Below are positions 5,901 through 45,241 of a stretch of 64,000 nucleotides of DNA, in pieces. The stretch's first letter is position 1. Each line of letters begins with the position of its first letter. The notes beneath the pieces were generated by a model. That model ran no database searches, was not told the DNA's origin, and saw only the letters and a program-made list of their open reading frames with translations. This DNA comes from a phage. The position numbers and the translations under genes are program-made. The stretch lies in the sequence record PZ386971.1; one strand, written 5' to 3'.

Positions 5901-6179
5901 ATGGCTGGCGTATGGTGTGATGTCTTGCTGGTTCGTTACAGCGTAAATGGGTGTGTCCAAGTGCGTTCCGCCTTCTATCCAGTACCGTTCTCTTCCGGTG
6001 GCCTGACGGTTCAGCGAGTTCTCGATATTGAGGCAGAACTGAACAAAAAGTCTTTTGGTGTACAAGTCCTGGGGTACGATCTTCTGAATGAAATGATGGT
6101 TGAAGAAGACAAAGTTGAGACTGTCATTGGTCGTCAGGAGATGGAATCGTTAATCTCCAAATCGGAGGTCAAATCATGA
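5901..6179 (+). CDS. hypothetical protein (92 aa)
   Basis: ATG with GGAGG RBS. Confidence 0.45.
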   Translation: MAGVWCDVLLVRYSVNGCVQVRSAFYPVPFSSGGLTVQRVLDIEAELNKKSFGVQVLGYDLLNEMMVEEDKVETVIGRQEMESLISKSEVKS

Positions 6180-6427
6180 GTCCCAACATGGCAATAATCT
6201 GGGTTGGTGAATCGTCAATGCGTTGTCCTCACAAGACGATCACCTTCTTGGACGATGAGCGCCTGGCCGAACAACGGGTTGAAGTCCGCGAAATGCAGGT
6301 TTCTTCAAAGGTGGTGAACGTTCCTGTGACTAATATTCAGACTTTTAAGCCTTGCGTCAGAGTGATTTGTGAACGCTGTGGATGTTATGGCACGATGACG
6401 ACTGAAGACGTGGCGAAAGGCTATTAA
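6176..6427 (+). CDS. hypothetical Cys-containing small protein (83 aa)
   Basis: ATGA coupling to upstream gene. Confidence 0.4.
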   Translation: MSPNMAIIWVGESSMRCPHKTITFLDDERLAEQRVEVREMQVSSKVVNVPVTNIQTFKPCVRVICERCGCYGTMTTEDVAKGY

Positions 6428-6517
6428 TTCCGCTTTATTCAATAAAATTTGTTAGTTAAACTGTAGTCCTCTTGTAGTGAACATGAAAGTAAACATTAAC
6501 CCAACGGAGAAATCCAG

Positions 6518-6796
6518 ATGAATCGTACTGAATTTGTTGCCCACATTGCTTCGACCCAGAACATCACCAAAGGCGAAGCGGAGAAAGTAGTGGCATCCTT
6601 TATCAACGGTGTTAAGACTGCAGTTGCTGCAGGCGCATCTGTACAGCTGGTCGGCTTCGGTGCGTTCGAAGTGAAACACCAAGAAGCGCGTGAAGGCCGC
6701 AACCCTCTGGACGGCCAGACCATTCAGATCGCGGCGAAAAACGTTGTGAAATTCAAAGTGGGCGAAGGTCTGAAGAACGCTGCCAACGGCAAGTAA
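6518..6796 (+). CDS. HU/IHF-family DNA-binding protein
   Basis: Strong match to HU signature VQLVGFGAFEV ... GRNP ... IQIAAKNVVKF. Confidence 0.85.
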   Translation: MNRTEFVAHIASTQNITKGEAEKVVASFINGVKTAVAAGASVQLVGFGAFEVKHQEAREGRNPLDGQTIQIAAKNVVKFKVGEGLKNAANGK

Positions 6797-6847
6797 TTCT
6801 ATCTGACGCGCGGCCAGGCTCTGCAATACAGGGCATGGCAAAGAGAA

Positions 6848-6876
6848 AGCCGGAGCATTGTACTCCGGCTTTTTCG
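6848..6876 (+). terminator. rho-independent terminator (GCCGGAG ... CTCCGGC TTTTT)
   Basis: Perfect stem plus T run after HU gene. Confidence 0.7.
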
Positions 6877-6924
6877 TTCTTGGGGATCGGGTAAACTATA
6901 GGCGAATCCCATAGGAGGAAGAAA

Positions 6925-8643
6925 GTGACAGCATTCAACCAATATACCAAGGCGCTTGACGGCGTCGGACCAGTCAGCATAGACCGCATCAAGTCTCTTG
7001 CCACTGAGTTCTTCCCGTATGACACCGCCAACCCCGGCCAGATGGAATGCATCGTTGAAGCCATTGATGCCCTTGTGAATAAGAAATTCAAACACGTGAT
7101 CATCGAGGCTCCGACTGGTGTAGGTAAATCCCTCATCGGCACTACCATCCATAATGTGCTTCGCCATTTGGTTCTTGAGCACAACCCGTATGGTCAGTTC
7201 CGCACGTCTATCACGACGCCGACCAAAGGTTTACAGGATCAGTATGCAGCAGAGAAAGCCGTGGCGATAGACATCCTGAAGGGCAAGAAGAACTACCGTT
7301 GCCACATCAGTCCCGACCTATACTACAACGCCATTCAGTGCCGTATGGCATGCCGTGATGGCCACTGTAGTAAGAATCGTTGCCCATATGTTCAGGCGCG
7401 TCGACAGTGGACCGACGTCTCCTCCCTGCGCTGCACCAACGCCGCCATGATGGTGGAGATGTGTACGACGATTTGTATGAAGCCGGAAAACCGTGCCGAT
7501 ATGCTGATCCTTGACGAGTGTCATAAGATGCCCTCTACGCTCCTAGAGCATACTATCATGGAATACAACATAAAGGCTGTGGAAGGGTTGCTTACGATCC
7601 CCGAGGGAGTGCCTATCGTGGAGACCATCAAGGATATCATCATCCGCACAGAGAACTATGAATTGGGCAAGCTGTATTCCCTGTCTGGTGAGATGCATGC
7701 GATATTTGATGAACTACACGGCAAGGTTGAAGCCCTGTTGGAAACTCTTGAAGAACTGGTAGAGGATGAGCGCCTGACTGAAGCCCAGGTGATGAAGCTG
7801 TCTGATATTATTGATAATCTTCACAACCTCAGTGACTACTGCGGTATCATGGGGCAGACCAACGCCAGCACTTTCATCGTACAGGAGAAGGACAAGGGTA
7901 TGATTCAGTTCAAGCCTGTCATCGCCTCTGATGTATCCCAGTTCGGTCTGTTCCGCAAGGGTGACTACCACGTTCACATGTCGGCGACCATCTGCGGGAT
8001 TGACTCGTACGCCCGGTCACTGGGTATCCGCGAGGGTGAGTACCACAAGATACAGATCGGCAACCCTATCCCGATTGAGAACCGGAAAGTCAACTACATG
8101 CCCATCATGAAGATGACAGCGAACATGGGTGACTACGAGATGAAGAAGCTGGCTGAATACGTGGATGAAATTATCGCGTTCCACCCTGGGCAGTCTGGCA
8201 TCATTCACACAGTCAGTTATGACCGCGCCCTGGCTCTACAAAAGTTCAGTAAGTACCGGAATATGATTCACGTTCCTCGTACTCGTAAGGCTCTGATGGA
8301 CATCATGGAAAACGCGTTCAGGACGAAGACGCCTTGTGTCATCGCCAGTCCGGCCATGGAAGAGGGGTATGACTTCAAAGGCGATTATAGTCGATTTCAG
8401 ATCTTGATCAAAGTGCCATACGATTACCTTGGTGATCCTCTGGTGGCCCACGTCAACAGTGTGGACCCATCGGCGTACTTCAGGATGGCGGTACTGCGTA
8501 TCGTTCAGATGTGTGGGCGTTCGGTCAGGGGCGTGAATGACTGGGCTGCGACGTACATCCTTGATTCTTCTTTTGAATCACTGATGATGCGCAACCCAGA
8601 GTTCTTCCCCGCTTGGTTCACTGATGCCGTGTTTGAGGTTTAG
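6925..8643 (+). CDS. SF2 DNA helicase, Rad3/XPD/DinG-like with Cys cluster (GTG start)
   Basis: Walker A APTGVGKS, DECH box, Cys-rich insert CRMACRDGHC; AGGAGG RBS before GTG. Confidence 0.7.
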   Translation: MTAFNQYTKALDGVGPVSIDRIKSLATEFFPYDTANPGQMECIVEAIDALVNKKFKHVIIEAPTGVGKSLIGTTIHNVLRHLVLEHNPYGQFRTSITTPTKGLQDQYAAEKAVAIDILKGKKNYRCHISPDLYYNAIQCRMACRDGHCSKNRCPYVQARRQWTDVSSLRCTNAAMMVEMCTTICMKPENRADMLILDECHKMPSTLLEHTIMEYNIKAVEGLLTIPEGVPIVETIKDIIIRTENYELGKLYSLSGEMHAIFDELHGKVEALLETLEELVEDERLTEAQVMKLSDIIDNLHNLSDYCGIMGQTNASTFIVQEKDKGMIQFKPVIASDVSQFGLFRKGDYHVHMSATICGIDSYARSLGIREGEYHKIQIGNPIPIENRKVNYMPIMKMTANMGDYEMKKLAEYVDEIIAFHPGQSGIIHTVSYDRALALQKFSKYRNMIHVPRTRKALMDIMENAFRTKTPCVIASPAMEEGYDFKGDYSRFQILIKVPYDYLGDPLVAHVNSVDPSAYFRMAVLRIVQMCGRSVRGVNDWAATYILDSSFESLMMRNPEFFPAWFTDAVFEV

Positions 8644-30096: not shown

Positions 30097-30102
30097 CAAG
30101 CC

Positions 30103-30151
30103 AAAGCCCCTCATTGAGGGGCTTTACTTCTATAATCCCTGCGCTTATACT
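30103..30151 (+). promoter_or_regulatory. terminator hairpin (AGCCCCTC ... GAGGGGCT) fused to early promoter TTTACT-N17-TATACT
   Basis: Same cassette architecture as at 549-612. Confidence 0.55.
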
Positions 30152-30202
30152 TCCCAGTAATTCATTGGCATTCGCCACAAATTGAACAGCAGGAACTATA
30201 TC

Positions 30203-44687: not shown

Positions 44688-45241
44688 TCACAGCAGGACA
44701 TATCAAAAGCCTGCTCGAACTCCAAAAGGCCACCAACGTGGCCTATTTTGGGGAAGAGTGGAAGAATGTATGGAGTCAGAACGCAGTCATCAACTCTATC
44801 TATCGTGAGTGGGCAGAGTTCCTTGATGAAACCACCCGTGACTGGAAGGTCTATGGCAACGACATCAGGTTTGACCATACGAACGCAGTTTATGAACTGG
44901 TGGACGTGGTACACTTCATGTTGTGCTTCATCCTTGTGGACCGCACCAAAGGTGAGATCGAAGAAGAAGAATTTGAAGTCCTTAGCAATCGCGAATTCAC
45001 CCCATCTGCTTTGGGTGTTGTAGGGCATCGCAATGTTACGTACCGCCTTGGGCAATTCATGAACGATCCTTGCGTTGAGACTCTCATGTTCTTCCTGTCG
45101 TCTGCGTGTTCTTATATGGAGATCGACATTGAGACTTACATGCTGGCACACAAACGCAAGAACGATCGCAATCGTCTGCGTGCTTCTGGTGGTGTGGATT
45201 ACGACAAGTCCGCAGAAACCCCTCTGACCCTGGAGTTCTAA
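44684..45241 (+). CDS. dNTP pyrophosphatase, T4 gp56 (dCTPase)/MazG-like; candidate dUTP/dTTPase
   Basis: ELVDVVHFMLCF matches gp56 ELVDIFHFVLNMF block. Confidence 0.6.
   Translation: MITAGHIKSLLELQKATNVAYFGEEWKNVWSQNAVINSIYREWAEFLDETTRDWKVYGNDIRFDHTNAVYELVDVVHFMLCFILVDRTKGEIEEEEFEVLSNREFTPSALGVVGHRNVTYRLGQFMNDPCVETLMFFLSSACSYMEIDIETYMLAHKRKNDRNRLRASGGVDYDKSAETPLTLEF

Follow-up and report, generated by a model that had tools for sequence, protein, structure and literature searches.

An HU-family gene in an Agtrevirus genome

The sequence that we analysed (the window) is a 64,000-nucleotide stretch of phage DNA (record PZ386971.1). The 3.2 kb surrounding the gene considered here display 98% identity to Escherichia phage vB_EcoM-RPN242 and 92.5% identity to Shigella phage Ag3; the window is the genome of an Agtrevirus, belonging to the Aglimvirinae within the family Ackermannviridae.

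The gene occupies positions 6518–6796 of the plus strand, stop codon included, and, in both the sequence and the ORF listing, runs from an ATG start to a TAA stop and encodes 92 amino acids. An earlier note on this DNA had described the product as a clear member of the HU/IHF family, and that description was borne out. The protein matches Pfam family PF00216 (Bac_DNA_binding) over its full length (residues 1–90/90; E-value 5.7e-29, with a score of 100.6 bits where the cut-off is 22.4), and also matches PHROG 379 ('DNA binding protein'; E-value 4e-35). We therefore regard it as confirmed that this ORF encodes a full-length HU/IHF-family protein. Minus-strand ORFs of 129 and 75 amino acids that lie across the same gene were rejected as by-products of the ORF listing, since the homology and the selection signal both fall on the plus-strand frame.

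Matches to solved HU structures settle the fold. These comprise Bacillus anthracis HU (PDB 3RHI; E-value 2e-19), Bacillus HU (1HUE; 7.5e-18), E. coli HU-alpha (1.6e-15) and TF1 of phage SPO1 (4e-11 to 1e-10). In alignments, the residues of the hydrophobic dimer core (G46, F47, G48, F50 and F79) are all present, as is the beta-arm motif R58-x-G60-R61-N62-P63, including the intercalating proline P63. Within a 17-sequence alignment R58, G60, N62 and P63 are invariant and R61 is replaced in TF1 only.

The highest-scoring PDB match of all was a single-chain IHF, and the best score against the NCBIfam equivalog models was likewise obtained for IHF-alpha (71.4 bits). These matches could be taken to indicate an IHF-like, sequence-specific factor that would act at one defined site (an origin or a packaging site, for example), but we consider this very improbable. 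The score of the single-chain IHF is inflated by its two domains, each of which matches the phage protein, and the equivalog cut-offs were missed by a wide margin for IHF (71.4 versus 111 bits for IHF-alpha and 65.7 versus 115 bits for IHF-beta) as well as for HU-beta (69.6 versus 157 bits) and HU-alpha (67.3 versus 162 bits). Identity to the two IHF subunits of E. coli is also only ∼30%, as compared to ∼41% for HU. Finally, the window contains a single HU-family ORF, and a search with the protein returned 539 matches distributed over 534 phage records. With a genome record almost always contributing a single match, the protein has no partner with which to form a heterodimer.

The equivalog results also indicate that the gene is no recent copy of a host gene. 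Capture from the host in the recent past is further ruled out by the 40–41% identity to E. coli HU-alpha and HU-beta (these two sequences and that of TF1 were verified against the PDB) and by the identity of the nearest cellular homologues found, which are HU proteins of Bacteroidota (Flavobacteriia) at 50–53% identity; the search was word-indexed and might have missed closer relatives. Bacterial HU proteins in general (E. coli HU-alpha and HU-beta, 1HUE, and the Staphylococcus aureus HU-DNA complex 4QJU) belong to the same fold family, are 90–92 residues long and 40–42% identical to the phage protein, and share with it the R58-x-G-R61-N-P63 arm motif and the hydrophobic dimer core. The Bacteroidota proteins share in addition an arm and strand motif, AREGRNP..G.TIQIAAKNVVKFK. 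The record for phage phiMAM1 likewise notes a likeness of its HU protein to a Chlorobaculum histone-like protein.

Flanking elements and gene order

A Shine-Dalgarno sequence, GGAG, can be read at positions 6506–6509 (plus strand), 8 nucleotides before the ATG, and both the motif and its spacing are kept in all six of the phages that we aligned. Further upstream on the same strand, the six-phage alignment revealed a conserved block (6432–6479) that forms a putative phage-specific promoter region. It consists of GCTTTATTCAATAA (which contains TTCAATAA at 6438–6445), 11 nucleotides of spacer, TAAACT (6457–6462) and then GTAGTCCTCTTGTAGTG. The pattern GCTTTATTCAATAA-N11-TAA(A/G)CTGTA..CTTG.AGT is almost unchanged across the six phages, which represent five genera, while the sequences on either side of it diverge. 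The block is retained even in phiMAM1, although the HU protein of that phage is only 51% identical to the one described here.

Related motifs recur elsewhere in the window. TTCWATAA occurs 21 times, as compared to ∼4 occurrences expected, with 17 copies on the plus strand (the main coding strand). At five sites it is followed ∼12 nucleotides 3′ by a TATAAT-like hexamer (∼0.3 expected), and all five are intergenic according to our own ORF list. From these patterns, we regard the block upstream of the HU gene as a putative member of a class of phage-specific promoters. A scan for sigma-70 consensus promoters detected none between positions 6000 and 7300, and no T4-style late promoter (TATAAATA) lies close to the gene. 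We also considered whether a MotA-box-like GCTTTA (6432–6437) might belong to a T4-style promoter, and rejected it on inspection by eye, as its spacing to the −10-like hexamer is wrong. Early and middle promoters of these phages could not be defined in published work (PMC3184105), and our literature search found no transcriptome study of the Ackermannviridae.

The earlier note had also credited the gene with its own terminator, and we found this to be correct. The intrinsic terminator (6849–6881, plus strand) comprises a stem formed by GCCGGAG (6849–6855) and CTCCGGC (6863–6869), a 7-nucleotide loop (CATTGTA), and then a T-rich tail, TTTTTCGTTCTT. The region 3′ of the gene folds with an energy of −40.5 kcal/mol (z = −4.2 relative to shuffled sequences) and 13 stem pairs. 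The hairpin is kept in the six phages from five genera, with compensatory changes on both sides at three stem pairs, and the record for phage Menlow annotates a terminator at the equivalent place. A consensus terminator scan of positions 6000–7300 returned none, probably because A/G-T pairs extend the stem into the T-run. An Rfam search of positions 6300–7000 gave only a chance-level match to ar35 (20 bits, the threshold being 45) and hence no evidence of an RNA element. Possession of a conserved upstream element and a terminator of its own argues that the HU gene is a stand-alone transcription unit.

Between the terminator and the next gene lies a second conserved block, TCGGGTAAACTATA (6887–6900, plus strand), which is kept in six of six phages and has TAAACTRTA in common with the block upstream of the HU gene; it is possibly a promoter for the gene that follows. 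That gene (6925–8643, plus strand, with a GTG start) encodes a DinG/Rad3-like helicase, for which the matches to NCBIfam DinG-like models all fall below their cut-offs. The order at the locus is variable small ORFs, HU, terminator, DinG-like helicase, a reverse-strand gene and RNase H, beyond which lie genes for a gp55 late sigma factor and then the gp47/46 nuclease. The same order is found in Agtrevirus, Limestonevirus (phiD3), Kuttervirus (GG32), Taipeivirus (Menlow) and Miltonvirus (phiMAM1). The HU gene is thus the first in a group of genes for DNA metabolism.

This location bears on one possible role for the protein, that of a host-takeover factor that would form mixed dimers with host HU-alpha or HU-beta, or compete with them on the host nucleoid, and thereby disrupt host chromosome organisation or gene expression instead of acting on phage DNA. 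Mixed dimers are conceivable given the conservation of dimer-core residues between the phage and host proteins, and phages do target HU, as SPO1 does with Gp46 (PMC8892312). The gene sits, however, among replication and recombination genes and outside any early host-takeover cluster, and the intact DNA-binding arm fits a working DNA binder better than a poison subunit. We accordingly hold such a role to be improbable.

Thymidine-modification genes

The earlier note had proposed that this genome probably encodes a pathway for thymidine modification. Pfam and PHROG matches identify the nucleotide arm of such a pathway at positions 42404–45241, with all of its genes on the plus strand. The first (42404–43075) encodes a 5-HMUDK-like P-loop kinase that resembles gp13 of phage YuA (E-value 3.6e-13). 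It is followed by a divergent thymidylate-synthase homologue (43075–44121) that we assign as a dUMP-hydroxymethylase homologue, and then, from Pfam and PHROG matches, by a dNMP kinase (44118–44687) and an NTP pyrophosphohydrolase (44684–45241). The thymidylate-synthase homologue matches the corresponding Pfam family with an E-value of 1e-15 and scores only 58 bits against an NCBIfam thymidylate-synthase cut-off of 327. It is 42% identical to the thymidylate-synthase homologue of phage PhiW-14, which is annotated as like the SPO1 dUMP hydroxymethylase, and 32% identical to its counterpart in YuA. The corresponding enzymes of phages ViI, CBA120 and AG3 have been grouped with hydroxymethylases (PMC3184105).

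These assignments agree with what is known of the family. Ackermannviridae DNA contains 5-(2-aminoethoxy)methyl-deoxyuridine (5-NeOmdU) in place of ∼40% of thymidines, made from 5-hydroxymethyl-deoxyuridine (hmdU) after replication by way of a 5-hmdU DNA kinase, glycosylase-fold transferases and a PLP enzyme (PMC5889632, PMC11721090). The pathway is thereby upheld by the thymidylate-synthase homologue, the YuA gp13-like kinase and the presence of 5-NeOmdU in the family. The modification module is not adjacent to the HU gene, lying ∼36 kb away from it.

Conservation, codon usage and prior annotation

A tblastn search found copies of the HU protein with at least 60% identity in 270 phage records, as compared to 273 records with a homologue of the hydroxymethylase. 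When the records are divided by host genus, the two counts (HU and hydroxymethylase, respectively) are 44 and 44 for Klebsiella, 19 and 19 for Dickeya, 168 and 162 for Salmonella, and 34 and 32 for Escherichia. The HU gene is a core gene of the Ackermannviridae, the ViI-like phages. It is under purifying selection, with pairwise dN/dS values between genera of 0.10–0.19 (dS reaching 1.6).

The fraction of codons that are optimal for E. coli is 0.736 in the HU gene, ranking first among 72 ORFs in the window (z = 2.8); the comparison involves a gene of only 91 codons and depends on the list of optimal codons that was used. All of its Gly, Arg and Leu codons are host-preferred. This codon usage suggests that the gene is highly expressed and its product abundant.

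The presence of an HU gene in these phages is already known as an annotation, and our analysis adds no new type of system. Among the Ackermannviridae entries of GenBank that our searches listed, many name the product 'DNA-binding protein HU-beta', 'DNA binding protein', 'histone family' or 'transcription factor 1'. In the searchable literature we found no experimental study of this protein or of any orthologue, and no paper that links the Ackermannviridae with HU or TF1. What is added here is an origin independent of that of TF1, a set of surface residues specific to the clade, conserved regulatory sequences on either side of the gene and a mixed outcome for co-occurrence with thymidine modification.

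A probable architectural role on phage DNA

We believe that the protein is probably an abundant, HU-type architectural protein for phage DNA, which bends or wraps that DNA and aids replication and recombination, and possibly the transcription programme. By homology it would form a homodimer whose two beta-arms (with R58, R61 and Pro63) enter the minor groove, bending DNA largely irrespective of its sequence. It would then coat or bend the phage's own replicating DNA, containing hmdU and 5-NeOmdU, and in doing so might assist replication, recombination, a transcription switch, or several of these. The analysis demonstrates the family to which the protein belongs, its conservation, the selection acting on it, its gene neighbourhood and its signature residues; we infer its dimerisation, bending, abundance and timing of expression, as well as the process that it serves. 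The genes of DNA metabolism that follow it, from that of the DinG-like helicase to those of the gp46/47 nuclease, are consistent with such a role, as are the codon bias of the HU gene and its organisation as a stand-alone unit with a terminator.

An alternative destination for an abundant DNA-binding protein would be the virion, where it might be packaged together with the genome and aid the condensation or ejection of DNA. HU-type proteins do compact DNA, and the gene appears to be highly expressed. The paper on phage LIMEstone1, which includes a table of 39 virion proteins, does not contain the terms 'DNA binding' or 'DNA-binding', which argues for an intracellular role; neither the name HU nor a peptide from it occurs in the portion of the virion mass-spectrometry table of phage Sajous1 that was examined; and the gene lies outside the structural module. 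A virion component therefore seems highly unlikely to us.

Host cells already provide abundant HU. A phage protein that was merely a generic HU would consequently seem redundant, which gives scope for some narrower function within the architectural role.

Relationship to TF1

TF1 of phage SPO1 is an HU homologue that binds preferentially to DNA containing hydroxymethyl-uracil. The earlier note had invoked it as a precedent, suggesting that the present protein may organise or mark modified phage DNA. Stated in full, the protein would be a specialist of the TF1 kind, binding far more strongly to hmdU or 5-NeOmdU DNA than to unmodified DNA, marking the phage's own DNA and regulating phage transcription. 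We regard this as possible, and on balance doubtful. It might include, for example, the shut-off of early promoters, as by TF1 in SPO1; as such it is compatible with the architectural role and refines it.

Several features of the genome and the gene are consistent with such a specialist. Thymidine in the Ackermannviridae is hypermodified, as described above, and no regulators of early or middle transcription have been identified in the family (PMC3184105). The HU gene belongs to the strictly conserved core of the family and evolves under purifying selection, and its leading share of host-preferred codons points to a product that is abundant, like TF1. The closest parallels, TF1 itself (PDB 1WTU and 1EXE), gp103 of CP-51 and gp190 of SP-10, are HU proteins of lytic phages whose DNA contains hmdU or a derivative of it, as is the case here.

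The protein is not, however, a member of the TF1 lineage. Several GenBank records name the orthologue 'transcription factor 1', but the protein described here is only 38% identical to TF1. We constructed a neighbour-joining tree (200 bootstraps) that included four Ackermannviridae proteins and the Herelleviridae proteins TF1, CP-51, SP-10 and YungSlug. The Ackermannviridae proteins formed a clade in 91% of bootstraps and the Herelleviridae proteins formed another in 96%, while the two were united as sisters in only 7%. The hallmarks of TF1 are likewise absent. Position 61 is Phe or Tyr in the TF1 clade (Phe61 in TF1 itself) and R61 in the Ackermannviridae protein; L48, I50 and P52 of the TF1 clade correspond to G48, F50 and V52; and the C-terminal tail of 7–10 residues that is found in TF1 (residues 91–99), CP-51, SP-10 and YungSlug is missing from the Ackermannviridae protein, which ends at residue 92. 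Orthology with TF1 is ruled out by the low identity, the separate clade, and the lack of Phe61 and of the C-terminal tail. The separation of the two clades indicates that SPO1-like phages and the Ackermannviridae acquired HU independently.

A family-specific set of surface residues

Comparison of 19 cluster representatives of the Ackermannviridae type revealed that R3, A26, S41, K53, Q55 and E83 are nearly invariant among them (R3 in 19 of 19 and A26 in 18 of 19, for example); R61 is found in all 19. As a comparison set we used the 71 nearest other homologues from the search, for which the named sources are all Bacteroidota. At position 3 the Ackermannviridae R is replaced by K in 64 of these 71, at position 26 the A by an acidic residue (E or D) in 59, at position 41 the S by R or K in 61, and at position 55 the Q by R in 67. 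The glutamate at position 83 occurs in none of the 71, and K53 is also among the signature positions at which they differ. The Bacteroidota proteins thus retain K3, E/D26, R/K41 and R55, with E83 found in none of them, unlike the phage protein, and bacterial HU proteins display the same kind of difference, with K41, R55, K83 and an acidic residue 26 in place of S41, Q55, E83 and A26. Judged by these residues, the Ackermannviridae proteins constitute a distinct subfamily that is specific to this phage family.

Several of these positions are known to be involved in DNA contacts. In HBsu, contacts are made by residues 41, 80, 83 and 86 (the 'pit') and by residues 53, 55 and 58 of the arms (PMC8892312). 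S41, Q55 and E83 of the phage protein therefore represent canonical basic contact positions that have become neutral or acidic. A further change, A26, removes the acidic partner of residue 3. For TF1, which lacks D26, it has been proposed that K3 is free to make a distal DNA contact, such that the binding site is lengthened to 37 bp; this is the model of Grove 2003, for which we rely on the summary in PMC2528193. By that salt-bridge model, the missing acidic partner of residue 3 in the Ackermannviridae protein would correspond to a longer wrapped DNA site.

The signature as a whole (S41, Q55, E83 and A26) sets the Ackermannviridae protein apart from all 71 nearest other homologues, in keeping with a specialised surface. 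A26 and E83 are also shared with TF1. Among the other phage proteins, that of CP-51 has E83 and no acidic residue at 26 (T26), and those of SP-10 and YungSlug have E26 and K83. The partial convergence with TF1 at these two positions is the one hint in the sequence of TF1-like binding, and we regard it as suggestive. That the protein actually prefers hmdU or 5-NeOmdU DNA is in our estimation unlikely, if far from negligible.

Co-occurrence with thymidine modification

Co-occurrence of HU and modification genes within the Ackermannviridae is uninformative, as both are core (the hydroxymethylase, for instance, is encoded by 14 of 14 Agtrevirus genomes; PMC10791037), and we dropped it as evidence of a link between them. 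In other phage lineages, the association that the earlier note had suggested checking was upheld in some cases and contradicted in others.

On the positive side, TF1-type proteins are present in SPO1-like phages, CP-51 and SP-10. The DNA of SPO1 and that of CP-51 contain hmdU, and SP-10 hypermodifies its thymidine; that these additional Bacillus phages also carry an HU homologue agrees with a connection to modified DNA. On the negative side, a search of the complete genomes of two other thymidine-hypermodifying lineages, PhiW-14 and YuA, revealed no ORF of the HU family (best hmmsearch E-value 0.2). PhiW-14 is a T4-like relative with putrescinyl-thymine, and YuA, for which hmdU production has been reported, is listed together with M6 as carrying homologues of PhiW-14 genes. 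In the searches at large, Pseudomonas (73 records) and Vibrio (66 records) are among the commonest names in the search for hydroxymethylase homologues, yet both fall outside the ten commonest names in the HU search, for which the tenth entry has 10 records.

The converse case also occurs. Phages of the SPbeta-like, BcepMu-like and temperate Ralstonia groups commonly carry HU homologues, and one is found in the Herelleviridae phage YungSlug. The first three groups are temperate or transposable, and thymidine modification is not known in phages of these types. Their proteins (YonN of SPbeta, gp04 of BcepMu and those of the Ralstonia phages) are phage-carried members of the HU family, as is the one described here, but are close to host-type HU, with K83 and an acidic residue 26, unlike the Ackermannviridae protein. 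An HU gene in a phage is thus neither required nor predicted by thymidine hypermodification, and the association is limited to particular lineages. The sample of lineages on which this rests is small, with gains in SPO1-like phages and the Ackermannviridae, and absence in PhiW-14 and YuA/M6-like phages.

We tentatively suggest, while considering it unlikely, that the Ackermannviridae protein is a second, independently evolved counterpart of TF1, in which a surface formed by S41, Q55, E83 and A26 (the last freeing R3) would fit aminoethoxymethyl DNA, and which would thereby discriminate phage from host DNA and help to set the early-to-middle transcription programme or the replication programme. 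With ∼40% of thymidines modified and T making up about a quarter of bases, we estimate that around a tenth of all nucleotides would carry the positively charged aminoethoxymethyl group.

The HU gene offers a tractable test case for such ideas, since two unrelated lineages with hmdU-derived DNA gained HU separately and other thymidine hypermodifiers did not. If the protein were to prefer 5-NeOmdU DNA, this would indicate that nucleoid proteins co-evolve with DNA hypermodification, and it would provide a handle on early and middle gene regulation in the Ackermannviridae, which are widely used in biocontrol. If it has no such preference, TF1 stays a one-off.

Promoter-like sequences in the window

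The octamer TTCWATAA occurs 21 times in the window, versus approximately 4 expected copies, with 17 of the 21 found on the + strand (at positions 1261, 5182, 6438, 23524, 26055, 37365, 40204, 48596 and 51144, among others). In most cases the motif is located directly 3' of a stop codon, and it is usually followed approximately 12 nt downstream by a TATAAT-like hexamer that is often contained within a GC-rich hairpin. The genes downstream of these sites include the DNA-metabolism genes nrdA, gp32 and HU, and a looser variant of the motif, TTCAAAAG, precedes the genes for the hydroxymethylase homologue and its adjoining kinase. This arrangement resembles that of T4 middle promoters in its geometry (the T4 box being positioned at approximately −30), although the T4 box is unlike TTCWATAA in sequence. 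According to published work, neither early nor middle promoters have been identified in ViI-like phages (PMC3184105).

Three intergenic regions (542–661, 887–1020 and 30097–30181) contain a GC hairpin with a run of T residues, followed directly by TTTACT-N17-TATTAT or TATACT. The regions at 542–661 and 887–1020 have the hairpin sequence CCCCAACAAACGTTGGGGATTTTTA in common. Judged by sequence, each region looks like a terminator with a sigma-70-like early promoter placed directly after it.

The surroundings of the HU gene

The element TAAACT(G/A)TA is present in only two copies in the window (6457–6465 and 6892–6900), one on either side of the HU gene, and both copies lie within blocks that are kept across the five genera aligned around that gene. 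It may correspond to a −10 or start-site element that is common to putative promoters of the HU and helicase genes. The DinG-like helicase gene 3' of HU starts with a GTG codon at position 6925, preceded by AGGAGGA, and this GTG start is kept in all six aligned phages.

A slot directly upstream of the HU gene (5901–6427) is variable between relatives. It is occupied by two small ORFs (92 and 83 amino acids) in the window phage and its close relative RPN242, by one ORF of 146 amino acids in AV101, and by a P22-type superinfection-exclusion gene in Kuttervirus and Taipeivirus. Many relatives cover only 90–91% of a 3.2-kb query around the HU gene.

The kinase adjoining the hydroxymethylase homologue

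The P-loop kinase that adjoins the hydroxymethylase homologue (42404–43075) resembles YuA gp13, a ‘putative kinase’, and is presumably a 5-hmdU DNA kinase. It is assigned to PHROG 800, which is labelled ‘terminase small subunit’; this apparently wrong name is also found in numerous RefSeq records, PhiW-14 gene 37 among them.

Histone-like proteins of other phages

Within the TF1 clade we compared SPO1 TF1 and its counterparts from CP-51, SP-10 and YungSlug. Residue 61 is aromatic in SPO1 (F), CP-51 (F) and SP-10 (Y) and is an arginine (R61) in YungSlug; the C-terminal extension is kept in all four proteins. The presence of hmdU or an hmdU derivative is documented for SPO1 and SP-10 DNA, and the DNA of CP-51 also carries hmdU or a derivative of it.

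The annotation of kutterviruses places a ‘histone-like protein’ first in an operon (operon 15 of FrontPhageNews) that also holds an ‘N-glycosidase’ and topoisomerase II (PMC10892097, Table S2). This protein is separate from, and additional to, the helicase-adjacent HU gene, and lies outside the window. Because tblastn returned only one HU-family match per genome, we infer that it belongs to a non-HU family. The accompanying ‘N-glycosidase’ may be among the hypermodification enzymes with a glycosylase fold.
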